Shown in pieces: positions 4,094-33,214 of a DNA stretch of 36,216 bases; the stretch's first letter is position 1, and every line of letters starts with the position of its first letter. The stretch is taken from positions 1 through 36,216 of the forward strand of contig JBKSMR010000031.1 of NCBI GenBank assembly GCA_046881895.1. Reading direction: 5' to 3'. The position numbers and the translations under genes are program-made. The DNA is from Alphaproteobacteria bacterium (GTDB lineage: Bacteria > Pseudomonadota > Alphaproteobacteria > Rs-D84). The notes under the pieces were generated by a model that saw only the letters and a list, made by a program, of their open reading frames with translations, searched no databases and had not been told where the DNA came from.

Positions 4094-5722
4094 ATGATAA
4101 ATTTATTTAAAAAAGTTGTGATTTGTTTCTTGGGTGTTTTTGTGTTGGTTGGTTGTGCAACCAAAGATTCTGCCAAAGTTGCAGCATCTGTAGACAAAGA
4201 TTTTGTAAACGCGTATGAGGCTTTTGAAATGGCAAAAAATCCACGTGCCAAGGTTGCCAGCGGTGATACAGTTTCGATGTCCGAAGGTGTGTGGCTTGGG
4301 AATAAGTCTGTTGTATTGGAACATCGTAATAATTTGCCTTCTCAATTTGAAACAGATACAGGCGTAACAATTTTATTAAATGAACCTGTCTCTTTACAGG
4401 TTTTGGCCAATGATATTTATTCTGCAACGGGTATTCCTGTTAAAATAGATGGTCAAATTTCGACAGAAAAACTAAAAAAGATGGTAAATGTTGCATATAC
4501 AGGAAAATTGTCCGGTTTGCTGTCTCAGGTCGCAACCGATTTAGATTTGTTGTGGTATTATGATAAAAATGCAATTGTTTTTTATGAGACAGAAACAAAA
4601 ACGTTTACATTATATGCACTGGGAACCGAAGTTGCATATCAAACAGCCGTATCGACAGATGATTCAAATGAAGTATCTTTGGAATCGACTTTGAAAGAGT
4701 GGGATGAAGTAGAACAGGCGATTTCTTCTATTATAGGTAAAAGTGATAATGCAGACTTTACGGTTTCTCGCAGTCTAGGAACAATTACTGTGACTGCATC
4801 GCCATCAGTCTTGGCGCGTGTTGGTGAATATATTGAGCGTCAAAATAAACGCTTGTCACAGCTGATTACAATCGATGTTAAAGTTTTGCAGGTTACAATT
4901 TCTAATGATTCTGCATTTGGTTTGAATTTGGCCGCTGCTATAAATTCTACGTCAGGCTTGAATATTGTTGCAAATCCAAAGAATAATTTGGCATCAACAG
5001 AGGCAAGTTCAATGAATATTGCAGTCTTGTCAAATGCTGTGTCTGCATTGACTGGTGCTACCCATACAGAAGGTAATACTACTGTTGGTGGTGCATACTC
5101 ACAAGATGATATTATGAACGGTTCTTTGTCTGGTGTCGCTGGATCTAATGCTTTGATAGAAGCGTTGGCAAAGCAGGGCAAGGTATCATTGGTTACAAAT
5201 GTAGGCGTAACAACACGTAGCAATCGTGTCGCACCAGTAAGTAATACACGTAGTACAGGTTATATCAAACGTTTCGAATCTAGAAACTTTACAACGGTTG
5301 AATCAAGTACTGTCGATCAAGATGATTTGGAAACTGGTTTCACAATGCAGTTGTTGCCAAATGTGTTAGAAAACGGCAAGATTTTATTGTTGTTCCGTAT
5401 GTCTGTTCGTGAATTGTTGCGTATGTCAACCCAGACAATTGGTGAAGTAACATTGCAGTTGCCAGAGGTTGAAGAACGTAGCTTTATGCAAGAAGTAATT
5501 ATGGAATCTGGTCAGATGTTGGTTGTTTCAGGCTTTGAAAAACAGACCAGTCAAGATACTCGCTATGGTTTGGGAGATCCTGACTTTATGGCATTGTCTG
5601 GTTCACGTGAAACATCTGCAACTCGTGAAGTATTGGTTGTTATCTTGACACCACAAGTATTGGTCAGCCCAATGGATACGGAAAGAACGATACAGCAGCA
5701 TTGGGGTGCACCTCTAAATTAA
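4094..5722 (+). CDS. Lipoprotein secretin (type IVb pilus TcpC/BfpB/PilN-like outer-membrane channel)
   Basis: The lipobox is FVLVGC followed by ATKDS. The C-terminal secretin domain reads GKVSLVTNVGVTTRSNRVAPVSNTRSTGYI...GFTMQLLPNVLENGKILLLFRMSV...GQMLVVSGFEKQTSQDTRYGLGDP...REVLVVILTPQVL. The RBS is AGGAG. Confidence 0.8.
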   Translation: MINLFKKVVICFLGVFVLVGCATKDSAKVAASVDKDFVNAYEAFEMAKNPRAKVASGDTVSMSEGVWLGNKSVVLEHRNNLPSQFETDTGVTILLNEPVSLQVLANDIYSATGIPVKIDGQISTEKLKKMVNVAYTGKLSGLLSQVATDLDLLWYYDKNAIVFYETETKTFTLYALGTEVAYQTAVSTDDSNEVSLESTLKEWDEVEQAISSIIGKSDNADFTVSRSLGTITVTASPSVLARVGEYIERQNKRLSQLITIDVKVLQVTISNDSAFGLNLAAAINSTSGLNIVANPKNNLASTEASSMNIAVLSNAVSALTGATHTEGNTTVGGAYSQDDIMNGSLSGVAGSNALIEALAKQGKVSLVTNVGVTTRSNRVAPVSNTRSTGYIKRFESRNFTTVESSTVDQDDLETGFTMQLLPNVLENGKILLLFRMSVRELLRMSTQTIGEVTLQLPEVEERSFMQEVIMESGQMLVVSGFEKQTSQDTRYGLGDPDFMALSGSRETSATREVLVVILTPQVLVSPMDTERTIQQHWGAPLN

Positions 5723-5827
5723 AATAAATTATAATAATTCATCTGTGGACGGTCCCGATGGTTCATGTAGCGTCTGTACACTACACCATCAGGACCGTTC
5801 CACATTTAAATCATTCTAATTGATTTT
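5721..5827. repeat. Palindromic intergenic element, copy 1 (conserved flanks, variable 18/19-nt stem, conserved 22-nt core)
   Basis: The left flank AAAATAAATTATAATAATTCATCT (5721-5744) is identical to 22785-22808. The arms are 5745-5762 GTGGACGGTCCCGATGGT and 5785-5803 ACCATCAGGACCGTTCCAC. The core is 5763-5784 TCATGTAGCGTCTGTACACTAC. The right flank is ATTTAAATCATTCTAATTGATTTT. Confidence 0.75.
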
Positions 5828-5845
5828 GCTTATGGATTATTTTGT

Positions 5846-5877
5846 AAAAAAAAATTCCCCAATTGGGGAATTTTTTT
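5846..5877. terminator. Bidirectional rho-independent terminator (secretin operon / rpsT)
   Basis: AAAAAAAAATTCCCCAATTGGGGAATTTTTTT. It is a perfect palindrome with an A-tract and a T-tract, lying between convergent genes. Confidence 0.85.
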
Positions 5878-5891
5878 GTTCTGATTTTTTA

Positions 5892-6152
5892 TTAAGCAAT
5901 TTTTGATAATTTTTTTGCCAAACGAGAAATCTTACGTGCAGCACGTTTTTTTGGCATAATTTTGCCAGCAGATTTCATAATTTTGCTTTCTGCGTTACGT
6001 GTAGCAGTAGTTGCAGCAGCTTTGTCGCCAGATTCAATAGCGACCAACGCTTTTTTTGTTGCTGTTTTAACTGCACTACGACGTGCTGTATTGATTGCGT
6101 TCTTTTTGGCTGTTACCAAAATTCTTTTTTCAGATGACTTATGATTTGCCAC
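5892..6152 (-). CDS. rpsT: 30S ribosomal protein S20
   Basis: 86 aa, MANHKSSEKRILVTAKKNAINTARRSAVKT... This is the typical basic S20 sequence. Confidence 0.95.
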   Translation of the reverse strand: MANHKSSEKRILVTAKKNAINTARRSAVKTATKKALVAIESGDKAAATTATRNAESKIMKSAGKIMPKKRAARKISRLAKKLSKIA

Positions 6153-6912: not shown

Positions 6913-7749
6913 ATGAAAAAACTTCTGTTCTTGGGAATTATGTGTTTGTTGACGTCTAATTCAGTGGCTGCAACTGCGGCTCGTGGTCGTGTGTCTATGG
7001 CAGATCAGATGATGGCGACACCACGTGCGACTGTATCCAAGGCTCAGATTTCTGCAATGGCGGCAGCAAATGCTGTAAATACATCTGGTGGAATGACTGC
7101 AAGTTTGGCGGTTACGCCAGAATATATGTTGCCTGCAATTGATGCTGATCCACGCAAGGCTGAACGAGATGCCTGTGTGGCTAATAATATCGGAATTGGT
7201 AATACCTTTGTGTGGGCATCAAGATATAGTGATTTAAATGATTATTCTTCTATGGTCGAAGATATGGAAAATCCCGATAATAATGTTTGTTTTGTCAAGG
7301 TATCATTAAAATCAGATGACGATAGAATTGACCTTAGTGATGTAAGTGGAAAATATTTTCAGATAGGACAAAATATAGTTTGTGGTTCTTGGGTTGATAG
7401 GGCTGATATGGAAAAGCGTATCTTGGATGCTAAAAAGACTGCACGTGTTTTGGGAACGGTCGGTGCTGTGGTTGGCGGGGCTGGAATTGGTGTTGGTGCA
7501 ATGGAATTGTTTGGTAACGAACTAATCGGTGGCAAGGTAGAGGGCCAAAAGTCGATGAGTAATACTGCGTTCTGGCGTTCTAAAATATTGGAATTGAAAG
7601 AAACAGATAATGCAGAATACACAAAGATAATTAACACGTTGAGAGATTTTAAAACAGTCTGTGAAAGAGTTAGATACGATACAACAACAGAAATGTTAAT
7701 AAGCCAAAAGTGTAACGAGTTTGATGATTTATTTGATCTAGCAAAATAA
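6913..7749 (+). CDS. Hypothetical secreted/membrane protein with an internal glycine-zipper hydrophobic segment
   Basis: The track ORF starts at 6847. I prefer ATG 6913 (MKKLLFLGIMCLLTSNSVAATA, a signal peptide) after GGATGGAGAG. The later segment VLGTVGAVVGGAGIGVGAMELFG is glycine-rich and hydrophobic. I recognise no family. Confidence 0.6.
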   Translation: MKKLLFLGIMCLLTSNSVAATAARGRVSMADQMMATPRATVSKAQISAMAAANAVNTSGGMTASLAVTPEYMLPAIDADPRKAERDACVANNIGIGNTFVWASRYSDLNDYSSMVEDMENPDNNVCFVKVSLKSDDDRIDLSDVSGKYFQIGQNIVCGSWVDRADMEKRILDAKKTARVLGTVGAVVGGAGIGVGAMELFGNELIGGKVEGQKSMSNTAFWRSKILELKETDNAEYTKIINTLRDFKTVCERVRYDTTTEMLISQKCNEFDDLFDLAK

Positions 7750-7772
7750 AATCCGCATTTGCGGATTTTTTT
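7750..7772 (+). terminator. Rho-independent terminator
   Basis: AATCCGCatttGCGGATTTTTTT immediately after the stop codon. Confidence 0.75.
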
Positions 7773-7810
7773 ATTGGTTTTTAATCATATGAATATCGTA
7801 TAGTATAGTT

Positions 7811-9304: not shown

Positions 9305-10588
9305 ATGCAGACAATGGCAAATGTAACAATGACTAACTTGGAAAATATCAAGGGGGCCATTGCCGCAAAAATTGATTCTGCAGGCTTTACTTCTTGGATC
9401 GCACCATTAAATTTTGACATTATAAATAATACTTTGGTTTTGGGTGCACAGAATCAATTCTCGGCTGACTTTATCAACAGTGTTTATGGTAACTTGATTT
9501 TGTCTGTTGCAAACGAATTTGGTTTGGGTGCAAAAATTATTGTTCGTTCTAATACTGCACCTGTCGCAAAGGCTTCTGTTGCAAATGATAATAAGACACA
9601 GAACTTTGCACCTGTGACAGCTGTGGTATCTGCCAAGCTTTCATTTGATTCTTTTGTATGCAGTGATGATAATTTGTTTGTATTGTCTGCATGTAAAAAA
9701 GTAGCAGCGGGTACAGTTTCTTTTTCACCGCTGTTTATTTATGGTGCATCCGGATGTGGTAAGACATTATTGACTGATTGTATCGCAGGTGCATCCCAAG
9801 GTCGTGTTGTTAAAATGACTGCATCGCAATTTGTTTCTGATTTTTCACGTTCATTAAAAGAATATAATGTTTTTGGTTTCAAAGATTTCTGTCGTAATTG
9901 TGATGTCTTTATTTTAGATGATGTTCAAGGTTTGTCTGGTAAAAAGGCATCAACCGAAGAATTTTTGCAATTGGTTGTTGATTTGCGTAATGCCGGCAAG
10001 AATGTTGTTTTGACAGCAAATGCGGCACCGAATAATCTGACAGGTTTAGACAGACGTGTTCAGTCATTATTGGCATCAGGTTTGACTGCCGAAGTTGTTG
10101 CACCGAATGCACATGTGAAAAATATCATGCTTCAACGTGCAGGTGTTGCATCTGATGTTGCAAGTGCATTATCTGCACGCATTGCAAACGACGGTCATTT
10201 GATTGCTGGTATTGCAACAAAAATCAAAACGTATGCAGATTTGATGGGGACTTCTGTTGATATGGATGTTGCACAACGCTTGTTAGCTGACACATTGCAA
10301 AAGACAAAAACACCATCCGCGATGGTTCGTGAAATGTGTGAAAAGTTAGCTGTATCATATGATGCGGTATGTGGTAATGGTCGCAGTCGTTCTTTGGTAT
10401 TGGCACGTCAGATGATGATGGTTGTATTAAAGAATGTGACAGGTTTGTCTTTGTCTGAAATTGGTAATTTTGTTGGCGGTCGCGATCATGCAACAGTTTT
10501 GTATGCGATTCGTCAAATTGAAAAACAACAGGCGACAGATTTGGTATTATCTGCCCAGATTCAACAGTTAATCAAAGAATATAAATAA
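9305..10588 (+). CDS. dnaA: Chromosomal replication initiator DnaA (short, divergent)
   Basis: 427 aa. The AAA+ core reads PLFIYGASGCGKTLL, VFILDDVQGLSGKKASTEEF and GKNVVLTANAAP. Domain IV reads RSLVLARQMMMVVLKNVTGLSLSEIGNFVGGRDHATVLYAIRQIEK. The RBS is AAGGAG. Confidence 0.85.
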   Translation: MQTMANVTMTNLENIKGAIAAKIDSAGFTSWIAPLNFDIINNTLVLGAQNQFSADFINSVYGNLILSVANEFGLGAKIIVRSNTAPVAKASVANDNKTQNFAPVTAVVSAKLSFDSFVCSDDNLFVLSACKKVAAGTVSFSPLFIYGASGCGKTLLTDCIAGASQGRVVKMTASQFVSDFSRSLKEYNVFGFKDFCRNCDVFILDDVQGLSGKKASTEEFLQLVVDLRNAGKNVVLTANAAPNNLTGLDRRVQSLLASGLTAEVVAPNAHVKNIMLQRAGVASDVASALSARIANDGHLIAGIATKIKTYADLMGTSVDMDVAQRLLADTLQKTKTPSAMVREMCEKLAVSYDAVCGNGRSRSLVLARQMMMVVLKNVTGLSLSEIGNFVGGRDHATVLYAIRQIEKQQATDLVLSAQIQQLIKEYK

Positions 10589-10593
10589 AATCT

Positions 10594-10613
10594 GCCCAAA
10601 TGGGCTTTTTTTT
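10594..10613 (+). terminator. Rho-independent terminator after dnaA
   Basis: GCCCAaaTGGGCTTTTTTTT. Confidence 0.65.
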
Positions 10614-10673
10614 ATCTGTTTGTATCAGGTGTATGTTTATGATATAATTTTGGCAAGAGTAAAAGGGTATGTA

Positions 10674-11279
10674 ATGCTAAAAAAAGATTTTGAAGCACGT
10701 CATGGACGTATTCCAACCAGAAATGCCATTATTGATTATTTACCAGATACACTAATAAAGTACAATTTGCAATCGGATTATCAACCGGCACATATCTGGC
10801 ACATTGTACAAAATATGCCTGGTTCTCATTTTTCAATATTGGATTTAGAGGGGTTGCGTACGATATTTGAAAATTTGAGACATGAACAACGTAAACCTGT
10901 TCGTGATTATTATTTAGAGGTTTTAGATCGTCGTTTCTTTTCTAGTGGTTGGGGATGGTTTTCACGTGGTGGGCGTGGATTGTCTACTTTTACACGTGAA
11001 ATAAAAGATATTCCAGCAGAAGAGCGTGCACTTGCACTGAAAGTATTGCGTACATTAAGAAATGGTTTTGATAATAATAGATATAAACCAAAATATGGAA
11101 CAAAAAAACTTATAAATTATTATATTTCTGCGTATGGTGGGACTGTGAATAGTTCGAAAAAATCATATGAAGATGCACAAGTAAAAATGATACTCGCAGA
11201 TAAATTGCCAAGAAAAAAGAAAAAGGAAATTAAAAAAATGGGGCTGTGGTCAATGTTTAAACAGTCTAAATTGAGATAA
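10674..11279 (+). CDS. Hypothetical basic protein
   Basis: The track ORF starts at 10620. I prefer ATG 10674 (MLKKDFEARHGRIP...) after AAAAGGG. It has a Lys-rich C-terminus (LPRKKKKEIKKMGLW). I recognise no family. Confidence 0.55.
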   Translation: MLKKDFEARHGRIPTRNAIIDYLPDTLIKYNLQSDYQPAHIWHIVQNMPGSHFSILDLEGLRTIFENLRHEQRKPVRDYYLEVLDRRFFSSGWGWFSRGGRGLSTFTREIKDIPAEERALALKVLRTLRNGFDNNRYKPKYGTKKLINYYISAYGGTVNSSKKSYEDAQVKMILADKLPRKKKKEIKKMGLWSMFKQSKLR

Positions 11280-11306
11280 AAAAACCGGAATATTTCCGGT
11301 TTTTTT
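11279..11306. terminator. Bidirectional rho-independent terminator
   Basis: AAAAAACCGGAAtatTTCCGGTTTTTTT between convergent genes. The parE stop overlaps the T-tract. Confidence 0.8.
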
Positions 11307-13284
11307 ATACGAATAGGTCTTTGACGAATTGGGCATGTTCGGTTATGAATTTAAATCTAAATTCAGGTTTTTTGCCCATCAGTTCAGAAACAATCGTTCG
11401 TGTTTTTTCTGTGTCTTCGGCACCTTCTTCGGTACGAGGTGGCAGTTCAACACGAATCAAACGGCGTGTTTTTGGTGACATCGTTGTTTCTTTTAGCTGG
11501 TTTGGCATCATTTCGCCCAAACCTTTGAATCGAGAAATTTCAACCTTTTTATTTTTGTACTTGGTTGCTTTTAGATTTTCCAGTTCTTCGTCGCTGTCAA
11601 CATAGATTGATTCTGTGCCGCAGGTCAATTTATATAATGGGGGACAAGATAGATACAAATGACCGCCATATATCAACTGTGGCATATATTGATAGAAAAA
11701 CGCCATAAGCAATGATGCAATATGACTGCCGTCAACGTCAGCATCGGTCATGACGATAATCTTTTCATAACGCAGTTTATCTTCGTTCCAATCTTTGGCA
11801 GTGCCAGCACCGATAATATCAATCAGTTCGTTTAATTCTTTGTTTGCACCAAAGCGTTCGTCTGAATTTGATATAACATTTAAAACCTTGCCACGTAATG
11901 GCATAATTGCCTGGGTCGCACGATCACGTGCCTGTTTCGCAGTACCACCAGCTGATTCACCCTCTACAATAAATAATTCTGTGCCGGCAATTCCGTGTTT
12001 TGAACAATCTGCCAGTTTCGCGGGCATGCGAATACGTTTAGTTGGGGTTTTGCGTGCAACGTCTTTGACTTGTTTGGTTTTGATACGTGCATTTGCTAAG
12101 TTGATTACAAAATCCAGTAATGCGTTTGCAGTCTTTGGATCAGATGCCAAGAACATCTCCCACGGGTCGCGTAGGGCATTTTCTGTATAGCGTGCAATTT
12201 CTGGATTTGATAATTTTTCCTTGGTTTGACCCAAGAATTGCGGTGTCTTGTAGAATACAGATACAATCGCAGCAACAGAATCAAATACGTCTTCACCAAT
12301 AATTGTCGCTGCAGATTTATTGTTTACTTTTTCCCCGTATGCTTTTATTCCCTTGGTAATTGCGGATTTAAAGCCGGTTTCGTGTGTGCCACCGTCAATT
12401 GTTGCGATTGTGTTACAGTATGATGAAAAGAATCCGTCGTCCGATGCGGCACCATTTTCATCTGTTAAAAATGTCAATGCCCATTCAACGCGTCCACTGT
12501 CATCTGGGAAATCAACACTTCCACTAAATATTCGTGGTAAAATGCGTGGTTTTGAATCTGTTTTTTCAGCCAAGAAATCTGCAACACCGTTTGGATAATA
12601 AAATGTTTTTGTTGCAGGAATATTCATATCTTCGGTCAACAATTCTGGATTGCAATGCCAATCTATCTTTATGCCGCGAGACAAGAATGCCTTGGCACGT
12701 GCCATGCGATATATTTTGACCGGTTTAAATACTGCGTTCGCACCGAAAATTTCATCGTCAAGTGTAAATCGGATTTTTGTGCCATGATTTTTTGTTGCAT
12801 CCATACGCTGCATAGAGCAGGTCGGAATACCACGTGAAAAAGTCTGATGCCAGTTATACCCATCACGTGCAATATCAACAATCATTTCTGATGATAGGGC
12901 ATTTACAACCGCAGAACCAACCCCGTGTAAGCCACCACTGGTCTTGTAGACGTTATTGTTAAACTTACCGCCAGAATGCAGCGTTGTTAAAATAACTTCT
13001 AGTGCAGATTTGCCTGGATATTTTGGGTGTTCGTCCACAGGGATTCCGCGACCATCGTCTGCGATTTCAATTGTTTTAGAATCGATTAAGTTTACAGTTA
13101 TTTTTTTTGCAAAACCAGCCACCGCTTCGTCAATGGAATTATCCATGATTTCAACTGGCAAGTGATGCCATGCCTTTTCATCTGTACCACCAATATACAT
13201 GCCTGGACGCAGGCGAACCGGTTCCAAGCCTTCAAGAACTTGTATATCTGATGCATCATATGTGTGTGTATTTTTCTCTGTCAT
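11305..13284 (-). CDS. parE: Type IIA topoisomerase B subunit, most likely topoisomerase IV subunit B
   Basis: 659 aa. The GHKL ATPase region reads LEGLEPVRLRPGMYIGGT, EIMDNSIDEA, DDGRGIP and GLHGVGSAVVNALS. The Toprim region reads ELFIVEGESAGGTAKQARDR, PLRGKVLNV and MTDADVDGSHI. Its length lacks the roughly 170-aa insertion of proteobacterial GyrB, so I prefer ParE. GyrB is not fully excluded. Confidence 0.78.
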   Translation of the reverse strand: MTEKNTHTYDASDIQVLEGLEPVRLRPGMYIGGTDEKAWHHLPVEIMDNSIDEAVAGFAKKITVNLIDSKTIEIADDGRGIPVDEHPKYPGKSALEVILTTLHSGGKFNNNVYKTSGGLHGVGSAVVNALSSEMIVDIARDGYNWHQTFSRGIPTCSMQRMDATKNHGTKIRFTLDDEIFGANAVFKPVKIYRMARAKAFLSRGIKIDWHCNPELLTEDMNIPATKTFYYPNGVADFLAEKTDSKPRILPRIFSGSVDFPDDSGRVEWALTFLTDENGAASDDGFFSSYCNTIATIDGGTHETGFKSAITKGIKAYGEKVNNKSAATIIGEDVFDSVAAIVSVFYKTPQFLGQTKEKLSNPEIARYTENALRDPWEMFLASDPKTANALLDFVINLANARIKTKQVKDVARKTPTKRIRMPAKLADCSKHGIAGTELFIVEGESAGGTAKQARDRATQAIMPLRGKVLNVISNSDERFGANKELNELIDIIGAGTAKDWNEDKLRYEKIIVMTDADVDGSHIASLLMAFFYQYMPQLIYGGHLYLSCPPLYKLTCGTESIYVDSDEELENLKATKYKNKKVEISRFKGLGEMMPNQLKETTMSPKTRRLIRVELPPRTEEGAEDTEKTRTIVSELMGKKPEFRFKFITEHAQFVKDLFV

Positions 13285-20333: not shown

Positions 20334-20389
20334 AAACACAACGAATGTGGGAAAACACATATATAAGTAAAAGGAAACAGGAGCGTATA

Positions 20390-21508
20390 ATGGAATTTTC
20401 AGTATTTCGTCAGGTTTTGATACGTGCGCTGGGACATATGCAGTCTATTGTTGAAAAGCGTGCAACACTGCCGATATTGATGAATGTAAAATTAGAAGTT
20501 GCAGATGATTTGATTTTATCCGCAACAAATGTTGATTTAGAATTGGTTGAACATGTAGCAGCGGATATCACATTGGGTGGTAAAACAACTGTTCCTGTAC
20601 AGATGTTGTACGATATTGTTCGTAAATTGCCGGATGATGCAGAAATATCATTTAAACAATCTGGTGATCAGTTGGTTGTATCCAGTGGTCGTGCGGTGTT
20701 CCGCTTGCCAACGTTGCCTGCTGAAAACTTCCCTGCAATGGCGGGTAGTAATTTGACTACTAAATTCCAAATGACAACGGGCGATTTAGCACATCTGATA
20801 AATCAGACCAAGTTTGCAATCCCAACAGACGATGTTCGTTATCATTTGGGTGGTATTTATTTCCATATTTCTGATGATAGCGGTGAAACAAAATTGACTG
20901 CTGTTGCAACAGACGCACAGCGTATGGCGTTATGTGCGATGCCTGCACCAACAGGTAGTGCAGAAATGCCATCTGTTATTTTGCCACGTCGTGTAATTGG
21001 TGAATTGTCTAAATTGTTAGAAGATGCCAATGTTGATGATGTAACTGTAGAGTTGTCTGATACCAAGGCTCGCTTTACAGTTGGATCTGCTATTTTAACA
21101 AGTAAGTTAGTTGATGCACAATATCCAAACTATCGCGTTGTTATTCCAAAGGGTAATGACAAGATTGCAATCTTGGATAGAAAGCAGTTTATAAATGCGG
21201 TTGACTTGGTTTCTGTCGCCAGCGTTGATAAAACAAAGTCTGTTCAATTGACTTTCAGTATGAATAAATTGGTTATAAATGCGTCTAGTCCGGATGCTGG
21301 TACTGCGACCCAAGAATTAGATATTGAATATAATGGTGATGCATCGTTTACTGTTGTGTTTAATGTAAAATTCTTGTTAGATGTTGCAGGTCAGGTTCAA
21401 GGTGAAAAATTCCAAATGGAGATGCAGGATCCATTGGCACCAACAAAAATAAACTCTACGGATAAAGATACAGATGCATTATATGTACTGATGCCGATGA
21501 GAATGTAA
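20390..21508 (+). CDS. dnaN: DNA polymerase III beta sliding clamp
   Basis: The track ORF starts at 20345. I prefer ATG 20390 (MEFSVFRQVLIRALGHMQSIVEKRATLPILMNVKLE) after AGGAAACAGGAG. Its length (372 aa) is typical and it ends with the clamp C-terminus YVLMPMRM. Confidence 0.9.
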   Translation: MEFSVFRQVLIRALGHMQSIVEKRATLPILMNVKLEVADDLILSATNVDLELVEHVAADITLGGKTTVPVQMLYDIVRKLPDDAEISFKQSGDQLVVSSGRAVFRLPTLPAENFPAMAGSNLTTKFQMTTGDLAHLINQTKFAIPTDDVRYHLGGIYFHISDDSGETKLTAVATDAQRMALCAMPAPTGSAEMPSVILPRRVIGELSKLLEDANVDDVTVELSDTKARFTVGSAILTSKLVDAQYPNYRVVIPKGNDKIAILDRKQFINAVDLVSVASVDKTKSVQLTFSMNKLVINASSPDAGTATQELDIEYNGDASFTVVFNVKFLLDVAGQVQGEKFQMEMQDPLAPTKINSTDKDTDALYVLMPMRM

Positions 21509-21519
21509 AACAAAAAAAT

Positions 21520-21544
21520 AAAAGCCGTCAAATGACGGTTTTTA
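21520..21544 (+). terminator. Rho-independent terminator after dnaN
   Basis: AAAAGCCGTCAaaTGACGGTTTTT. Confidence 0.75.
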
Positions 21545-21611
21545 TTTTGGCAATAAATTGCAAATTGAAATTTTTATGGTACCCTTGTGACTACAAACAA
21601 AAGAGGAAATT

Positions 21612-22221: not shown

Positions 22222-22791
22222 ATGGCGTCTTATATTGCAAATGATATGCGTGTTGGTTGGGTGATTTCACATAATGGTAAACGTTATTCTGTTACATCTA
22301 TTACCAAGGTTAAACCAGGCAAGGGTGGTGCGTTTGTTCAGGCAGACTTGCGTGACATTGACTCTGGTAACAAAGGTGGCGACCGCTGGCGTGCAGAGGA
22401 CAAGGTTGAAAAACTGATGGTTGAAGATTTTGACTGTCAATATCTGTATGCAGACGGTACAGATGCATTCTTTATGAACTTGTCTGATTATGAACAGTTT
22501 ACAATGCCTGTTGATTCATTGGGCGAATCTATGAAATTCTTGGCACCAGAAATGATTGTAAAGGCAAACTTTGTCGAAGGTCAGCCGGTGTCTATTTCTT
22601 TGCCAAAAACAGTTATTGCAATCGTTGAAGAAACAGAGCCTGCATTAAAGGGTCAGACTGTTTCGTCCAGTGGCGGCAAACCTGCGATTTTGGATAACGG
22701 TGTTCGTGTTCAGGTTCCTTTGTTTATCGAACAAGGTGAAAAGATTGTAGTAAATACTGAAACCCTGGAATACGTCGAACGTGCAAAATAA
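22222..22791 (+). CDS. efp: Translation elongation factor P
   Basis: 189 aa. It carries VKPGKGGAFVQADLRD (the KPGKG loop) and a typical three-domain length. Its last codon and stop lie inside repeat-element copy 2. Confidence 0.95.
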   Translation: MASYIANDMRVGWVISHNGKRYSVTSITKVKPGKGGAFVQADLRDIDSGNKGGDRWRAEDKVEKLMVEDFDCQYLYADGTDAFFMNLSDYEQFTMPVDSLGESMKFLAPEMIVKANFVEGQPVSISLPKTVIAIVEETEPALKGQTVSSSGGKPAILDNGVRVQVPLFIEQGEKIVVNTETLEYVERAK

Positions 22792-22902
22792 ATTATAATA
22801 ATTCATCTAAAAACAAATCGGGAATCTCATGTAGCGTTTGTACACTACGATTCCCGATTTGTTTTTATCTAAATCATTCTAATTTATTTTTACCGCTAAT
22901 CG
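22785..22902. repeat. Palindromic intergenic element, copy 2
   Basis: The left flank at 22785-22808 is identical to 5721-5744. A perfect 18-bp stem is formed by AAAAACAAATCGGGAATC (22809-22826) and GATTCCCGATTTGTTTTT (22849-22866). The core is TCATGTAGCGTTTGTACACTAC (22827-22848). The right flank is ATCTAAATCATTCTAATTTATTTTTACCGCTAATCG. Confidence 0.8.
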
Positions 22903-23000
22903 TGAATGGTGTTGGTGGAAATCTCATGTAACGTTATGTACACTACGCCATTACCAACCCGTTTATCTATACCATTATCTTTTATTTTTTACGCTAATCA
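22903..23000. repeat. Palindromic intergenic element, copy 3 (degenerate, in tandem with copy 2)
   Basis: The core is TCATGTAACGTTATGTACACTAC (22924-22946). The arms TGAATGGTGTTGGTGG and TTACCAACCCGTTTA pair only with G-T wobbles and one bulge. The right flank is ATCTATACCATTATCTTTTATTTTTTACGCTAATCA. Confidence 0.6.
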
Positions 23001-23077
23001 CGGACAGGGGATGGCTCTTATAAATTTTGAATAATATCTATCTATCTTTAATAACACAACATAACAAAAATTTTGCC

Positions 23078-23135
23078 ACCACTAACCACCAACCACTAAC
23101 CACTAATCACCAACCACTAACCACTAATCACTAAT
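23078..23135. repeat. 7-nt tandem repeat tract, about 8 units of (T/C)AA(C/T)CAC
   Basis: CCACCAC TAACCAC CAACCAC TAACCAC TAATCAC CAACCAC TAACCAC TAATCAC TAA. It lies between the efp and fba 3' ends. Confidence 0.8.
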
Positions 23136-23146
23136 TTATTTTTTCG

Positions 23147-24088
23147 CTAATATTTGTTTTCGCTGCCCATGATGTTTTTTATTTCGTCGATACATGTTTG
23201 CGTTATTGCAATTTGTGCCTCTCTTAAATAATCGCGTGGGTTAAAGTTGTTTGGATTTTGTGCCAATGATTTGCGAATGCCAGCTGTGAAGGCTAAACGC
23301 AAATCGCTGTCTACATTTATTTTGCAAATATTCAATTTTGTTGCACGACGCAGTTGGATTTCGTCGATTCCAAGGGCGTTCGATATTTTTCCGCCAAATT
23401 CATTTATTGTTATGATTAGTTTTTGTGGAATGTTTGATGCACCATGTAATACCAAGGGAAATCCGGGTAGTTGTGTAGCGATATCTGCTAAAATGTCGAA
23501 TCGCAATTCTTCGGATGCGGTTTTGCGTTTATAGGCGCCATGACTGGTTCCGATGGCGACGGCCAATGAGTCAATATTTGTTTCTTTTACAAATTTTTCA
23601 ACATCTGCTGGATTGGTATATCCGATTGTGCCAAATGTATTTTCGTCTTCGATTCCGCCCAGTGTTCCAAGTTCGGCTTCGACAGACACGTTGTGTTTGT
23701 GTGCAAGTTCAACGACAACTTTTGAAGTTTTTATGTTTTCGTCAAAGGGCAATTTGCTGGCGTCAATCATGACGGATGAAAATCCAAGTTCGATTGCTTT
23801 TTTACAGGTGTCTATGCTTGAACCGTGGTCCAAGTGCAGGGCGATTTGTTCGTGTGGTTGAATGTTTGCACCGCGTATCATCCCAATTAACATATCGCTG
23901 CCCATATATTTTAGTGCGGATTCGGATACGGCCAGTATTATAGGACTATGTGTTTCGCGTGCAGCAGCAAGTATTGCATTCAATGTTTCCATGTTATAAA
24001 AGTTAAATGCAGGTATTGCATAGTTGCCAGCGATTGCGTCGTGAAACATTTGTTTGGTGTTTACCAGTCCCAGTTCTGTATACTTCAT
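23147..24088 (-). CDS. fba: Class II fructose-bisphosphate aldolase
   Basis: The track ORF extends to 24187. I prefer ATG 24088 (MKYTELGLVNTKQMFHDAIAGNYAIPAFNFYNMETLNAIL) after AGAGGA. Motifs are HLDHGSS, GTSHGAYK and PLVLHGAS. The stop codon is TAG. Confidence 0.88.
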   Translation of the reverse strand: MKYTELGLVNTKQMFHDAIAGNYAIPAFNFYNMETLNAILAAARETHSPIILAVSESALKYMGSDMLIGMIRGANIQPHEQIALHLDHGSSIDTCKKAIELGFSSVMIDASKLPFDENIKTSKVVVELAHKHNVSVEAELGTLGGIEDENTFGTIGYTNPADVEKFVKETNIDSLAVAIGTSHGAYKRKTASEELRFDILADIATQLPGFPLVLHGASNIPQKLIITINEFGGKISNALGIDEIQLRRATKLNICKINVDSDLRLAFTAGIRKSLAQNPNNFNPRDYLREAQIAITQTCIDEIKNIMGSENKY

Positions 24089-24243
24089 AAAAATCCTCTT
24101 TGTTGATTGGATTATAGCATATTTTGTGCATTTGTGTGTTAGTTTTTTTAGTGGCTTTCCTTGACAACTGATTAAATTTTGCAACAATTACTACGAATCG
24201 GGGGCCGGACAGAGAAAACGGTAATTTTACAAAGGGTAAAAAA

Positions 24244-24591: not shown

Positions 24592-24596
24592 TAAAC

Positions 24597-24620
24597 GAAC
24601 CGCCAATTGGCGGTTTTTTT
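24597..24620 (+). terminator. Rho-independent terminator
   Basis: GAACCGCCaattGGCGGTTTTTTT. Confidence 0.8.
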
Positions 24621-24689
24621 ATTTGTGATTATTATTTGAAATAGGTTGTTTTTTGTGATAGAATAAAAGAAAAGGACAAGAGGTTTATT

Positions 24690-25058
24690 ATGAAAAAACT
24701 TATAAACAAGGTAAATTTTGCAATTGTTGGTTTGATGGCGTCTGCGGTGCCTGCAATGGCGGCATCGTCGTCGACAGATGTTGATTCGGGTATCTGCAAA
24801 CTGGTCGGAAGCTTGGGCGGTTTGTTGGGCACATTGCGTACACTGGCGTTTATTGGTGCTGGGTTCTTGATTGCACAGTGGGCATGGGAATTCATTACAA
24901 AACCGGGCGAAGTTAAACTGGAAAAGTTTAAAGAAAAAGGCGTTGGTATGTTGGTTGGTTTTGTGTTGCTGTTTGGTATCGGTACAGTCATTAGCTTTTT
25001 GATGAGTGCTGCAGGTAAAGCAGGTTGTATCCCAGAATTTGCGACATGGAATGGTTAA
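24690..25058 (+). CDS. Small two-TM secreted membrane protein with VirB2/TrbC (type IV secretion pilin)-like architecture
   Basis: 122 aa. The signal peptide ends in AMA followed by ASSS. The mature part has two hydrophobic helices separated by a charged loop (ICKLVGSLGGLLGTLRTLAFIGAGFLIAQWAW ... GVGMLVGFVLLFGIGTVISFLM), resembling A. tumefaciens VirB2 as I recall it. This call rests on architecture and memory only. Confidence 0.4.
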   Translation: MKKLINKVNFAIVGLMASAVPAMAASSSTDVDSGICKLVGSLGGLLGTLRTLAFIGAGFLIAQWAWEFITKPGEVKLEKFKEKGVGMLVGFVLLFGIGTVISFLMSAAGKAGCIPEFATWNG

Positions 25059-25084
25059 AAAAATCCGGCGATGCCGGATTTTTT
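25057..25084. terminator. Bidirectional rho-independent terminator
   Basis: AAAAAAATCCGGCgatGCCGGATTTTTT between convergent genes. Confidence 0.8.
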
Positions 25085-26033
25085 ATTGCTTTATTTTTTG
25101 ATTTGCGTATTTTTGCATAAATATGATTTCTTTTTCTTTTTTATGTTTTTGTATATAATCAATGCTGAATTTGATTATTTGTTTTTCTGGTACAAAGCCG
25201 GTTGCTTTATAAGTTTCGTTTCTGGCGTTTCGTAATTCTTCGCACAATATATCATGTAATTTGTTCAGTGTATGATTATATGTGGGTTGTGCATTAAATC
25301 GGTTGATTGTTTTTGTAATCGCCTTACTTTTAGCGTTCAATAGCGGTGCACTCATATAGTTCAGCAATGGGTCGTTGTTTTTATGTGGTATATCGTACAT
25401 GTCTTTGATTTCGTCCGCAGTATGGCCAAGGAATAATGCAGGTGTTGATGTGTGGTAAAATAAACCGTGGGCACCGCCCAAATGTTTTATAATGCCGCCA
25501 AGCTGTCGTTCTTTTTCAGATATGTTATGGCGTGCGTTTATTCGTTCATATTGTGCTGTTATGTTTGTTATTTCTTTAAATGATGCGTTTGACCAGCAAG
25601 CAGGTATCATAAAATATATGTATGCATACAGTGCGTCTGGATTATCTTTTACAAAAGACCAACATGCATATCTGGTGACTTTGTGGTCGACATTGTTGCC
25701 AAATGGCAGCGAATTTAGTTTTATTTTGCGTTCTATGTGTTTGGAGTGTGATTTTTGGAAATCGTGTGTTTGTTCGATTGTTAATTTTGGAAATCTTTTT
25801 TTGTTTATGTCATAGGGGACGATTATCTTGCTGCAAATTTGATTTCCAAAAACCAGTTCTGTTGGTATTATGGATGGGCCTAATATATTGTGTAAATCAG
25901 ATAGGTACCAGAATTCATCGTCTGGTTTATTATCGTGTTGTATATTGTATTCTGCGAATATATCAAGCTGTTGGTTGTCTCTGTTGATGTGTCGTGTGGA
26001 ATCTAGTAAATTAAATAGTTCTTTTTGTTGCAT
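25083..26033 (-). CDS. DinD (DNA-damage-inducible protein D)-like protein
   Basis: 316 aa. Against my memory of E. coli DinD, EFWYLSDLHNILG matches EQWSARQLGKLLG and VTRYACWSFVKDNPD matches LSRYACYLVVQNGDP. The C-terminal part LFLGHTADEIKDMYDI...LLNYMSAPLLNAKSKAITKT...VPEK follows the pattern GLYGG...K.L...D.M...ELAAN.F..TQT...PE. The RBS is AGAGG. Confidence 0.6.
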   Translation of the reverse strand: MQQKELFNLLDSTRHINRDNQQLDIFAEYNIQHDNKPDDEFWYLSDLHNILGPSIIPTELVFGNQICSKIIVPYDINKKRFPKLTIEQTHDFQKSHSKHIERKIKLNSLPFGNNVDHKVTRYACWSFVKDNPDALYAYIYFMIPACWSNASFKEITNITAQYERINARHNISEKERQLGGIIKHLGGAHGLFYHTSTPALFLGHTADEIKDMYDIPHKNNDPLLNYMSAPLLNAKSKAITKTINRFNAQPTYNHTLNKLHDILCEELRNARNETYKATGFVPEKQIIKFSIDYIQKHKKEKEIIFMQKYANQKIKQ

Positions 26034-29796: not shown

Positions 29797-30199
29797 AATC
29801 TTGGGTGTAATCTTTGGCGTGTCGTTATCTTGTTCTGCGATGGCGGTGCCAGCTGTGGTGGACTATGTTGTGGATGGCGATACGTTTGCTGCAGGTGTTC
29901 AGGTCGCAGACGATATTACAATTACTGTGCGTGTTCGTCTGATAAATGTTGATACGCCCGAATTAAGTGGTGCATGCCAGCGTGAGGTTGCCATGGCAGA
30001 AGCCGCCAAAGATTTTGTTGATGATTTGTTGCCGGCTGGTACCAAGGTTGATTTGCAAAATATCAAAGACGATAAATATCTGGGTCGAATTGATGCAAAT
30101 GTAATATTGCCTGATGGACGTGACTTGGGTAATGTTTTGATAAAACAAAAACTGGCACGTTCATATAGTGGTGGTCGGCGTCTTGGATGGTGTGATTAA
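29789..30199 (+). CDS. Secreted staphylococcal-nuclease (SNase/thermonuclease)-like nuclease
   Basis: The track ORF starts at 29681 inside the ABC gene. I prefer GTG 29789 (or TTG 29786), which gives the signal peptide VNKILGVIFGVSLSCSAMA. SNase-like motifs are VVDGDTFAAGV, VRVRLINVDTPE and DKYLGRIDANVILPDGRDLGNVLIKQKLARSY. The start overlaps the ABC stop by 8 nt. Confidence 0.68.
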   Translation: MNKILGVIFGVSLSCSAMAVPAVVDYVVDGDTFAAGVQVADDITITVRVRLINVDTPELSGACQREVAMAEAAKDFVDDLLPAGTKVDLQNIKDDKYLGRIDANVILPDGRDLGNVLIKQKLARSYSGGRRLGWCD

Positions 30200-30225
30200 A
30201 AAAATCCCCAAATGGGGATTTTTTT
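30198..30225. terminator. Bidirectional rho-independent terminator (nuclease / plsC)
   Basis: AAAAAAATCCCCAaaTGGGGATTTTTTT. The plsC stop overlaps the T-tract. Confidence 0.85.
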
Positions 30226-30931
30226 ATGCACTGTGACGGTTGATTGCATCGCTGATTTCATCTAGTGATGCATTGCATGGCAATAATGGTTCAAACCAAA
30301 TATTTGCGGTTCCAGAATGCATACGACCGTGTTTTGGCCAATACAGGCCTGCATCTGTGCCAATTGGTAAAATTGGCAGTTTTAATGTGTGTGCCAACAG
30401 CAGCAAGCCACGCTTTAAAGGGATTTTTTGCCCAGGTTTTGCGCGTGTGCCTTCGGGGAATATAACCAATGTATATCCATCCAAGACGCGTTTTTCAACG
30501 TCGTCGGCCAATTTTTTCATGTTTGTTTTACCTTTGGCACGATTTACCCCCAGCATACCACAACGCCAAAATGCCCAGCCGTAAATCGGTATCCACAGTA
30601 ATTCACGCTTCATGATAAAGAATGTGTTTGGCATAACTTTTGATATAGCGGCAATTTCCAATATAGACATATGCTTTGCGGCAACAATACATTTGCCGTC
30701 AATTCTTTTGTTTCCGTTTGGCAAGTTTGGAATACCATTTTCTTCGGTTGCAGGATAGTGGACTTTATATTTTATTCCACATATAAGGCGTGCGACCAAT
30801 AATACACCAGCTGCATCTGCAAATACGAATTTGCGTGACAGTTTTTTTGATACCAGTCCAATCAGCAACAATGGCGACCATGCAGTAAAATAAAGCCCCA
30901 GTACGATTTTAAAAATAATAGTTCTGAACAT
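30224..30931 (-). CDS. plsC: 1-acyl-sn-glycerol-3-phosphate acyltransferase
   Basis: The track ORF extends to 31006. I prefer ATG 30931 (MFRTIIFKIVLGLYF) after AGGAAG. The acyltransferase motifs are AAKHMSILE (an HX4E variant of HX4D) and VIFPEGTR. Confidence 0.8.
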   Translation of the reverse strand: MFRTIIFKIVLGLYFTAWSPLLLIGLVSKKLSRKFVFADAAGVLLVARLICGIKYKVHYPATEENGIPNLPNGNKRIDGKCIVAAKHMSILEIAAISKVMPNTFFIMKRELLWIPIYGWAFWRCGMLGVNRAKGKTNMKKLADDVEKRVLDGYTLVIFPEGTRAKPGQKIPLKRGLLLLAHTLKLPILPIGTDAGLYWPKHGRMHSGTANIWFEPLLPCNASLDEISDAINRHSA

Positions 30932-33181: not shown

Positions 33182-33214
33182 AAAAAAAATCCCCAGGTCG
33201 GGGAAATTTTTTTT
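33182..33214 (-). terminator. Rho-independent terminator after pal
   Basis: AAAAAAAATCCCCAggtCGGGGAAATTTTTTTT. The pal stop overlaps the tract. Confidence 0.8.

Follow-up and report, generated by a model that had tools for sequence, protein, structure and literature searches.

The hairpins described here form an undescribed family of palindromic repeats of ~110 bases in Candidatus Enterousia, for which neither Rfam nor literature searches rendered a match, as a first-pass annotation of this DNA had supposed. The combination of features is unusual, since the repeats abut stop codons, can stand in for a terminator, lie on one replication strand only and exchange their stems between copies. We favour, with a probability of roughly one half, the interpretation that they are a lineage-specific, REP/BIME-like palindromic mosaic repeat that acts as a 3'-end hairpin, whose stems diverge by compensation and are exchanged, and which is under a single-stranded-DNA or replication constraint. 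Rfam gave 0 matches at gathering thresholds, and in E-value mode only generic long-hairpin matches, such as plant miRNA precursors, which scored 31 bits where the threshold is 211.

Repeat units in the window

The window (the whole stretch of 36,216 nucleotides that was analysed) holds two full units and one half unit, all on the + strand. The full, or A-type, units were recognised by sequence reading and by the covariance model R1 at 5717-5831 (copy 1; 101.5 bits, E 1.3e-21) and 22781-22894 (copy 2; 109.7 bits, E 1.3e-23), the latter being the longest inverted repeat of the window (I1). Copy 1 is composed of a left flank (5721-5744), a left arm (5745-5762), a core (5763-5784), a right arm (5785-5803) and a right flank (5804-5827), and copy 2 of the same parts at 22785-22808, 22809-22826, 22827-22848, 22849-22866 and 22867-22890. 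The left flank is AAAATAAATTATAATAATTCATCT in both copies, and the core is TCATGTAGCGT(C/T)TGTACACTAC, found twice in the window versus 0 expected from 100 shuffles. The arms are GTGGACGGTCCCGATGGT and ACCATCAGGACCGTTCCAC in copy 1, with one bulge and one C.A mismatch, versus AAAAACAAATCGGGAATC and GATTCCCGATTTGTTTTT in copy 2, with 18/18 positions paired. Direct reading of the sequence thus bore out every block of flank, core and arm listed in the first-pass annotation. Both full units fold as rods of ~45 bp, far better than shuffles, with RNA fold z-scores of -6.7 (copy 1) and -10.4 (copy 2) for the + strand and of -10.6 and -12.3, respectively, for the - strand.

The left flank of copy 1 adjoins the TAA stop codon (5720-5722, + strand) of a secretin gene (4094-5722; ORF list, Pfam Secretin match and sequence). 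A plain bidirectional intrinsic terminator (5848-5877, unstranded; called by the terminator scan and a member of repeat family D1) is located 20 nt downstream of copy 1, between it and the convergent rpsT gene (5892-6152, - strand; Pfam). In copy 2, the TAA stop codon of efp (22789-22791, + strand; gene assigned by Pfam) lies inside the left flank, and the unit is directly followed by the half, or B-type, unit (22895-22992, + strand), which was identified as a core-pattern match, scores 21.5 bits with R1 and shows only a marginal fold. It consists of the linker CCGCTAATCGTGA, a G/T-rich pseudo-arm extending to 22923, a core of 23 nt (22924-22946), which is the third core found by the core-pattern search of the window, a right arm (22947-22964) and a right flank (22965-22988). 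A second linker, TTACGCTAATCACGGACAGGGG (22989-23011, + strand), resembles in sequence the beginning of another half unit, one that stops before any core, and its motif ACGCTAATCACGAAC also recurs in arrays of other genomes. Further downstream, a degenerate right-half remnant (23078-23146, + strand; repeat family D7) can be read as C/A-rich 7-nt repeats (CCACTAA/CCACCAA) with TAATTTATTTTTT and CGCTAAT behind them, and runs up to the stop codon of fba (23147-24187, - strand; Pfam). The terminator scan found no plain terminator in the efp-fba spacer, and promoter scans around both window loci found none. The adjacency to stop codons, the half-unit arrays and the strict replication-strand polarity had been missed by the first-pass annotation.

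Family size and host

A scan with the exact core rendered at least 115 loci, nearly all from sequences titled Candidatus Enterousia or uncultured Alphaproteobacteria MAGs, and 185 units were counted in 59 species-level MAGs. The copies of the window are therefore not three isolated occurrences, and the family with constant core and flanks, and stems that differ yet remain paired, is real. Since loci were collected by the exact-core pattern, conservation of the core is partly a matter of ascertainment; units found independently by the covariance model keep at least 18 of the 22 core bases. The host, Candidatus Enterousia (order Rs-D84), comprises uncultured gut bacteria with genomes of 0.75-1.0 Mb, and the element is present at low copy number, roughly tens per genome. 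Genomes of less than 1 Mb that are about 90% coding, as those of the host (PMC12306168), are expected to shed repeats; the element has nonetheless persisted in dozens of species, and at the same gene ends. No copies of the element, or matches to it, were found in viral contigs.

Unit architecture and covariation

A full unit has ~110 nt, and its single strand folds to a rod of three stacked helices, namely an outer helix formed by A/T tracts, a short middle helix and an inner helix of 18 bp (the arms), with two conserved ATCT/ATCT internal loops between them and the conserved 22-nt motif as a cap, so that the unit amounts to 42 rod pairs plus the cap. Constant across the family are the 22-nt apical core, the two internal loops and the A/T-tract ends. 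Covariation and fold statistics were computed on 85 full units. Compensatory changes, with both sides altered, were found in 35 of the 42 rod pairs, and 86.4% of the cells were paired versus 69.1% in shuffles. The covariation score was 0.449, versus 0.143 in shuffles (0/500 reached 0.449) and at most 0.106 in slid controls, so that covariation is strong, in support of this part of the first-pass interpretation. The loops are constrained in sequence, the helices only in their pairing. GTAG is present only inside the apical core, where it pairs with CTAC in one register, and it is lost in diverged cores, e.g. GTAT...CATC.

Among the 85 full units, 67 distinct left arms were found, which single-linkage clustering joins into a continuum and not into a few subfamilies with fixed stems, and the arms of copies in one genome differ at 44% of positions. 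The stems of the two window copies had been described as unrelated. They do differ while staying paired; the arm columns of the family, however, show position-specific base preferences (one pair, for example, is G-C in 73/85 units), and intermediate stem sequences link the two window stems.

Arrays are arranged head-to-tail, with one full unit and up to four right halves, and no locus carries units on both strands. In the family, the left arm of a half unit shows no specific complementarity to the right arm of the same unit. Half units were also considered as G.U-paired RNA hairpins, but true left/right pairs, at -13.4 kcal/mol, were no better than permuted ones, at -12.1, and half units are therefore right halves located after generic G/T-rich sequence.

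Exchange of stems between copies

At orthologous sites whose upstream genes are 0.85-0.95 identical, flanks are 0.8-1.0 identical and arms either 0.9-1.0 or 0.2-0.5. In close relatives, the arms at orthologous sites are thus either inherited or replaced wholesale. The comparison of the window with locus L112, for example, gives gene 0.89, flank 0.94 and arms 0.17, and the proposal made from the window copies, a swap of the stem alone, holds for such sites as well. Arm types recur at many unrelated sites, with 2-6 arm types per site, and chimeric units exist. Nested insertion of an inner hairpin into a flank-only hairpin at ATCT was also considered and rejected, as no flank-only 'empty' sites were found.

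The first-pass annotation had proposed a programmable or guide helix, or a dedicated templated mechanism that writes both arms, and preserved pairing in differing stems and whole-stem replacement between close relatives would fit such a proposal, but it is already largely refuted and we regard it as barely credible, given the positional base preferences in the arm columns, the intermediate stems, the lack of viral matches, the sharing of arm types between species and between sites, which inheritance and exchange of variants would produce, and the fact that compensatory divergence together with arm-core-arm exchange accounts for the data. A search of 157 arms against 0.86 Mb of loci with the elements masked rendered 21 distinct places at ≤1 mismatch, all of which either belonged to further copies of the element, whose cores are diverged or truncated, or were low-complexity sequence; with shuffled arms there were 0.

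Position at gene ends and relation to terminators

For about 85 units, the stop codon of a co-oriented ORF is located 34-46 nt before the core, so that the unit starts at, or a few bases from, the stop. A co-oriented gene directly precedes 97 of 106 arrays, 54 of the arrays being located between convergent and 43 between tandem genes. The upstream genes are housekeeping genes (efp, dnaN, rpoA and others), and about 25 orthologous gene ends carry elements recurrently across species. Some species have the element instead of the plain terminator downstream of dnaN and dnaA. After dnaN, a plain terminator is present in the window and in L036, L072, L088, L105 and L115, and the element without a plain terminator in L028, L041, L090 and L094; L010 also has the element at this site, in a contig that ends inside the unit. 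At some sites the plain terminator is retained alongside the element. Weak covariance-model matches in the window include most of its plain bidirectional terminators.

There is no U-tract directly after the hairpin, and the units escape the terminator scan. The T-tract lies 24 nt past the G+C-rich helix and is paired with the A-tract, an arrangement also seen in the plain bidirectional terminators of the genome. Some units are located within the rpsM-rpsK-rpoA operon and therefore cannot be strong terminators. Counting plain terminators overall in the presence and absence of the element gave no usable information, since the ORF calls were crude and the search windows differed in size.

Because a unit starts at or near the stop codon of a leading-strand gene, it would be transcribed as the 3' UTR or intercistronic spacer of that gene. 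As a 3'-end hairpin, it could act in termination or attenuation and as an exonuclease barrier, and its constant apical loop and internal loops may be read by a putative host factor. Since helices need only pair, they drift by compensatory change, and the arm-core-arm segment is also replaced wholesale via exchange with other copies, possibly by gene conversion anchored in the conserved flanks or by copy-and-paste on single-stranded DNA. Compensatory drift and wholesale segment exchange explain why copies in the same genome have common flanks and core but different self-complementary stems. No trans-acting factor has been identified, which counts against this 3'-end hairpin reading.

Replication-strand polarity

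The core-sense strand is the G-rich (leading) strand, with positive GC skew, in 98/98 loci, a new finding, and only 65% of the genes lie on that strand. Contigs contributing two or three loci carry the element on the same strand throughout in 11/11 cases. Locus L066 was considered as a natural experiment separating core from flank orientation and was discarded, the GC skew of its genome being too weak for a replication-strand assignment. That lagging-strand genes lack the element would not be expected if the function were confined to RNA, and this counts against the 3'-end hairpin reading. The strict orientation relative to replication implies that a DNA-level constraint or mechanism also acts, the candidates being that hairpins form on the lagging-strand template or that the element spreads through it.

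It can also be the case that the element is a replication-polar, structure-defined hairpin cassette of a new class. Its conserved apical motif and mismatched C residues would then be recognised on the lagging-strand template by an enzyme or by the replication machinery, which would in turn move the arm-core-arm module among the 3' ends of leading-strand genes by copying or exchange. We advance this only tentatively; if true, the cassette would serve these genomes, from which ordinary mobile elements have been lost, as a terminator module that is mobile or renews itself.

Of similarly limited probability is a non-autonomous single-stranded-DNA transposon, derived from IS200/IS605 or of the RAYT/REP type, for which a Y1/HUH-like enzyme would excise the hairpin from the lagging-strand template and paste it beside terminator-like A/T tracts, the RNA hairpin being a by-product. 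Insertion of IS200/IS605 members is oriented to match the lagging-strand template (PMC5027513), in agreement with the polarity of the 98 loci, and the presence of the same arm types at unrelated sites, the presence/absence differences and swaps between close relatives, the ATCT that directly flanks the inner hairpin on both sides, and the conserved mismatched bases on the exposed strand, which resemble extrahelical bases of other single-stranded-DNA hairpin substrates, would all be consistent with it. However, no homologue of RayT (phmmer with E. coli RayT, E up to 10) and no HUH/YxxNP motif were found in the 0.86 Mb of element-bearing loci, a weak negative as these are loci and not whole genomes. 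In addition, upstream proteins of unknown function gave no recombinase-like matches in Pfam and NCBIfam, no gene is flanked by inverted units, and neither a conserved target tetranucleotide at the left boundary nor flank-only empty sites were found. The within-genome copies are old, as judged from their arms, the sites are conserved across many species, and the genomes are small and densely coding.

An unlikely alternative is a DNA element of replication on the lagging-strand template, either a priming or pausing hairpin resembling a single-strand origin or a polar site for protein binding, comparable to KOPS or Chi. The polarity of all 98 loci and the strand asymmetry of the imperfect palindrome would fit, and the apical loop of the exposed strand has TAGCGT, identical to the CS-6 loop motif of the ssoA origins of rolling-circle plasmids (PMC4598088). 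This 6-mer match can be due to chance, however, and diverged cores lose it (TAACTT, TATCAT); an RSB-like motif is not visible in those units read, the weaker hairpin is the one on the exposed strand, and the close association with the stops of co-oriented genes is not predicted.

The - strand folds more stably in 85/85 units (mean -55.5 versus -44.7 kcal/mol as RNA, and also as DNA), and the flank mismatches are C.A and C.U on the + strand, corresponding to G.U and G.A on the - strand. This is the usual signature of a - strand structure and counts against the 3'-end hairpin reading. It would be expected for an independent structured small RNA transcribed from the - strand, antisense to the 3' UTR, with a rod stabilised by G.U and tandem G.A pairs. 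In line with this, wobble positions in the flanks favour the - strand (126 versus 26), and flank pair 22-101, which on the + strand is G-C (35), A.C (41) or A-U (8), follows on the - strand a path from C-G through U.G to U-A. Arm mismatches, on the other hand, show no strand preference (44 versus 45), scans of the window loci found no promoter-like site downstream, and the half units and the linker motif GCAAGGGG are intelligible on the + strand only. Moreover, 43 arrays are located between co-directional genes, some inside a ribosomal-protein operon, a setting in which transcription of the antisense strand is unlikely. We consider such an RNA very improbable.

If the conserved loop is a recognition site for a protein or enzyme, as the favoured 3'-end hairpin reading supposes, it would offer a handle on transcript ending or processing in Enterousia or, alternatively, on hairpin-based DNA exchange without a recognisable transposase. 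The covariation-supported motif could be used in RNA and repeat libraries, and as a clade marker in metagenomes.

Comparison with known systems

The arrays differ from CRISPR arrays in that the sequences between cores are conserved flanks, and arms that pair across the core, instead of unique spacers, and no cas genes were found among the annotated neighbouring genes. The Correia/NEMIS elements of Neisseria and the enterobacterial ERIC sequences are imperfect palindromes of 100-150 bp near gene ends, co-transcribed as long hairpins that may undergo processing and affect mRNA stability; their stems are conserved and their copies near-identical within a genome. In contrast to these MITEs, the stems of the Enterousia element vary, only its loops and ends are constant, and it is strictly polar; its ends are inverted A/T tracts with no flanking target-site duplication, and its within-genome arm distance is 0.44.

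Integron attC sites (PMC5371416, PMC3458562) resemble the element in their location immediately 3' of a gene, their fixed orientation, a structure that is kept while sequence varies, the different folding of the two strands and the relevance of orientation relative to replication. The element, however, lacks the R''(RYYYAAC)/R'(GTTRRRY) consensus, its right flanks, with 1.5% G, being unable to carry GTTRRRY; there is no integrase or cassette array, the neighbouring genes are housekeeping genes, and the apical part, variable in attC, is constant. With IS200/IS605 and their miniature derivatives, which are hairpin elements oriented by the lagging-strand template (PMC5027513), the element shares this orientation in 98/98 loci, but it is one long palindrome and not separate left-end and right-end hairpins, its loci carry no TnpA-like ORF, the columns upstream of the left flank are variable, without a target tetranucleotide, and its copies are old and diverged.

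REP/BIME are small (20-40 bp) extragenic palindromes, mostly found downstream of ORFs, between unidirectional or convergent genes (PMC3733652), a placement that agrees with the 54 convergent and 43 tandem contexts of our 106 arrays. They are also similar to the element in being probably transcribed, in forming mosaic arrays with linker motifs, and in that families are defined by a small conserved tag and structure while stem sequence types vary (PMC3733652). On the other hand, the element has ~110 nt and three helices, its conserved motif is apical, with no unpaired GTAG/CGTC foot tag, and its arrays are head-to-tail, a full unit plus right halves, instead of alternating. It is also of low copy number and of strictly single orientation relative to replication and gene, and no RAYT, whose gene is usually flanked by REPs, was found in 0.86 Mb of loci.

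Finally, the plain bidirectional intrinsic terminators of the same genomes start, as the element does, at the stop codon, have A-tract/T-tract ends and are interchangeable with it at orthologous sites. The element differs from them in ~70 extra nt of conserved architecture, in a U-tract that is not adjacent to the G+C-rich helix, and in being located also inside operons and only after leading-strand genes.

Structure of the repeat

Direct reading of the window confirmed all the blocks described in the first-pass annotation. In the two full units (copy 1, 5717-5831; copy 2, 22781-22894), the 24-nt left flanks (5721-5744 and 22785-22808) are identical, the right flanks near-identical, and the 22-nt cores (5763-5784 and 22827-22848) differ at one base, all on the + strand, defined as the core-sense strand; the core pattern matched twice in the window, with no match expected from shuffled sequences. 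The 18-19-nt arms are unlike between the two copies, yet paired inside each of them, and both copies fold far better than shuffles on both strands. A third core, one base longer, lies at 22924-22946 (+), in a half unit (copy 3, 22895-22992). A covariance model of the repeat identified these three, and no further units, in the window, with 109.7, 101.5 and 21.5 bits.

Across 85 aligned full units, which are phylogenetically non-independent, the constant parts are the core, the ends (an A-tract and a T-tract), and an ATCT tetranucleotide that borders the arms on both sides in direct orientation and, in one flank type, the middle helix as well. All sequence between these parts is covarying helix. 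Compensatory changes, proposed earlier as a check of the structure, were found in 17 of 21 pairs predicted by RNAalifold, and both-sided changes in 35 of 42 rod pairs. When all 48 pairs of the structure are considered, paired cells make up 86.4% (shuffles, 69.1%), and the covariation score is 0.449, compared with 0.143 for shuffles (none of 500 reached 0.449) and at most 0.106 for slid controls.

The left arms comprise 67 distinct sequences in the 85 units and are joined gradually by single-linkage clustering, so that the stems form a continuum and not a small set of fixed subfamilies. They had been described as unrelated; they do differ between copies while remaining paired, but the arm columns show base preferences (one pair is G-C in 73 of the 85 units), which identifies them as diverged homologues rather than arbitrary inserts. 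Among units found by the covariance model instead of the exact pattern, the truly invariant core bases are TGTA...GTACAC, and the GTAG/CTAC pairing and TAGCGT are sometimes lost. TAGCGT (5768-5773 and 22832-22837) is identical to the CS-6 loop motif of the ssoA single-strand origins of rolling-circle plasmids, and the core also has an ATG with TAG directly after it (TAA in copy 3); both features may be coincidental, since they are missing from some diverged cores.

Half units start with a linker, ACGCTAATCACGAAC or GCAAGGGG, continue with a 'left arm' of generic G/T-rich sequence (39% G), and retain the 3' portion of the core together with the right arm and right flank. The 'left arm' shows no greater complementarity to the right arm of its own unit than to those of other units. 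At 23078-23142, just ahead of the fba stop codon, a series of C/A-rich 7-nt repeats (CCACTAA/CCACCAA; TTAGTGG on the - strand) leads into a tail similar to the right flank, and then CGCTAAT; the series resembles a right half of the element that has expanded and has no core. In another genome (locus L017, 2640-2700), arms of the common type (AAAAACGGGAATC / GATTCCCG...TTTTT) form a hairpin that has an unrelated 23-nt loop in place of the core, and that is either a core-less relative of the element or a terminator ancestral to that arm type. A diverged sub-lineage (L093, 6134-6797; L027, 2665-2777; L008, 7182-7294; L098, 5722-5826), with other flanks and arms like GCTTGTTGTTGGCTCG, is located around rpsM and rpsK in the ribosomal-protein/rpoA operon, and its arms are kept across species, unlike those at the secretin and efp sites. 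A separate repeat at 35167-35269, in which a 21-nt unit (AAGAAAAGGTTGCAGGCGTCG and variants) occurs four times head to tail, lies inside ORF 34539-35570 and implies a 7-residue protein repeat.

Distribution and exchange of segments

A scan for exact matches to the core, which covered a single genome of each bacterial species and makes core conservation look higher than it is, gave at least 115 loci, nearly all from Candidatus Enterousia or uncultured alphaproteobacterial MAGs from animal guts. The listed loci represent 59 species-level genomes. The hosts, members of the order Rs-D84, have 0.75-1.0 Mb genomes with about 90% coding sequence (PMC12306168). The family extends well beyond the three copies of the window: under a looser definition, the listed loci hold 185 units (97 full, 65 half and 23 intermediates). 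Arrays are all head-to-tail, with 1 to 5 units (51 singles, 24 doubles, 12 triples, three with four units and one with five); MAG assemblies may collapse repeats. The fetched blocks contain roughly one further array every 58 kb, from which a genome would carry some tens of units. No matching family was found in Rfam, no copy in viral contigs, and no description in literature searches.

Over 697 orthologous pairs, arm identity declines more rapidly than gene identity, down to background. Where genes are 0.85-0.95 identical, arm identity is either almost complete or no higher than background (0.2-0.5), with flanks at 0.8-1.0; examples are the window versus L112 (gene 0.89, flank 0.94, arms 0.17) and L059 versus L099 (0.91, 1.00 and 0.44). 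One arm type is found at many different sites, and one site holds 2-6 arm types; arm distance is slightly lower within than between genomes (0.44 vs 0.54, p = 0.0005). There are also chimeric units, with left and right arms of different types, and arrays that grow and shrink between relatives, as in L088, 90% identical to the window around efp, which has one unit versus the window's array, with breakpoints at repeated CGCTAAT motifs. Together, these observations show that arm-core-arm segments are exchanged among copies.

Location at stop codons and relation to terminators

In about 85 units, the stop codon of a co-oriented ORF, as called by simple ORF heuristics, lies 34-46 nt before the core, at or inside the left flank. 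Arrays directly follow a co-oriented gene in 97 of 106 cases, the next gene being convergent in 54 and co-directional in 43. In the window, the upstream genes are the secretin gene and efp, and the downstream ones rpsT and fba; family-wide, upstream genes are ordinary (ftsK, rpsM, rpsK, rpoA, clpB-like, leuS, yebC, secB, mltG, cdaA, dnaN, dnaA), and about 25 orthologous sites recur across species.

The same genomes carry plain bidirectional terminators, made of an A-tract, a 5-7-bp G+C stem, a 3-4-nt loop and a T-tract, which start right at stop codons (in the window, 5847-5877, 7743-7773, 10584-10614, 11278-11308, 21517-21547, 24592-24622, 25057-25092, 30196-30226 and 33182-33212). Most of them are among the weak covariance-model matches in the window, because the A-tract/T-tract frame is common to both. 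Such a terminator follows dnaN in the window and five other genomes; in four genomes elements are present there and the plain terminator is absent, and in L010 an element follows dnaN with the contig end inside the unit. The efp-fba spacer of the window has no plain terminator; copy 1 is followed by one downstream. The element is not a strong terminator, since units are found on both sides of rpsK.

Strand asymmetry and replication polarity

The - strand folds better in all 85 full units (mean -55.5 vs -44.7 kcal/mol on the + strand, as RNA), and also as DNA. This is due to the flanks, whose C residues lie in C.A or C.U mismatches on the + strand, the - strand counterparts being G.U or G.A. 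In the flanks, the count of wobble-type differences is 126 to 26 in favour of the - strand; in the arms there is no such preference (44 vs 45). The + strand flanks are nearly G-free (right flank, 1.5% G and 15% C). The right flanks (5804-5827, 22867-22890 and family-wide) are G-poor despite their location on the globally G-rich strand, and such a G-poor, C-containing, U-rich tail behind a strong hairpin may be akin to Rho-binding RNA.

All 98 loci with a length of 6 kb or more have positive GC skew when it is measured on the core-sense strand (mean +0.184), and none matched the skew expected for an element on the C-rich strand. The skew amounts to +0.243 for co-oriented genes (minimum +0.115) and +0.081 for anti-oriented ones (minimum -0.096), implying contributions of about +0.16 from replication and about 0.08 from coding. 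The G-rich strand carries only 65% of the genes in the loci, and with some 25-38 independent sites counted, a model of gene orientation only would produce this polarity with a probability of at most about 2e-5. A further observation, which does not depend on skew, is that units lie on the same strand in each of the 11 contigs that gave two or three loci. The G-rich strand is the lagging-strand template, exposed as single-stranded DNA in replication. The replication polarity of the element is a new observation. In a more distant genome (46-50% G+C), the unit L066 5709-5822 has its core inverted relative to the flank asymmetry, and its 'left-type' flank adjoins a convergent - strand gene at the stop codon; in this genome the replication strand could not be assigned from the weak GC skew.

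In the window, skew is very strong and positive throughout (about +0.2 to +0.3 over + genes, 0.01-0.10 over - genes), and since its sign is constant despite the presence of dnaA (9305-10588) and dnaN (20345-21508), the replication origin is outside the window. These two genes, together with parS-like sites, suggest an origin-proximal region. The best site, TGGTTCACGTGAAACA (5599-5614), has one mismatch to TGTTNCACGTGAAACA and lies inside the secretin gene, in its 3' end and some 105 nt before copy 1; weaker ones are found at 10988, 13451, 7951 and 23951, and at up to three mismatches there are 10 matches versus 3.0 expected.

Nature of the element

The reading that we prefer, at a probability of roughly one half, is that of a co-transcribed 3'-end hairpin with constant parts read by a host factor, subject in addition to a constraint or copying at the DNA level on the lagging-strand template. 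The hairpin would be able to replace a plain terminator, a putative host factor would recognize its constant parts, and the DNA-level constraint or copying step would act on the exposed template.

The main rival, about half as probable, is a transposon-like element moving as single-stranded DNA, which would account for the replication polarity, IS200/IS605 elements having the same kind of orientation bias (PMC5027513), and for the site-hopping. It is weakened by several findings: the copies are old and diverged, their sites are conserved, and neither a transposase in the sampled loci nor a target motif or empty sites were found. Minor weight is given to an sso-like or polar DNA site, and to an sRNA on the - strand. 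The proposal of a guide or programmable helix fails, since in the sampled loci the arms have no targets beyond other copies of the element.

The description of the element is secure: it is a palindromic mosaic repeat, similar in kind to REP/BIME repeats but distinct from them in architecture, in which loops and ends are constant and helices covary, and which lies at stop codons with a strict polarity with respect to both genes and replication.
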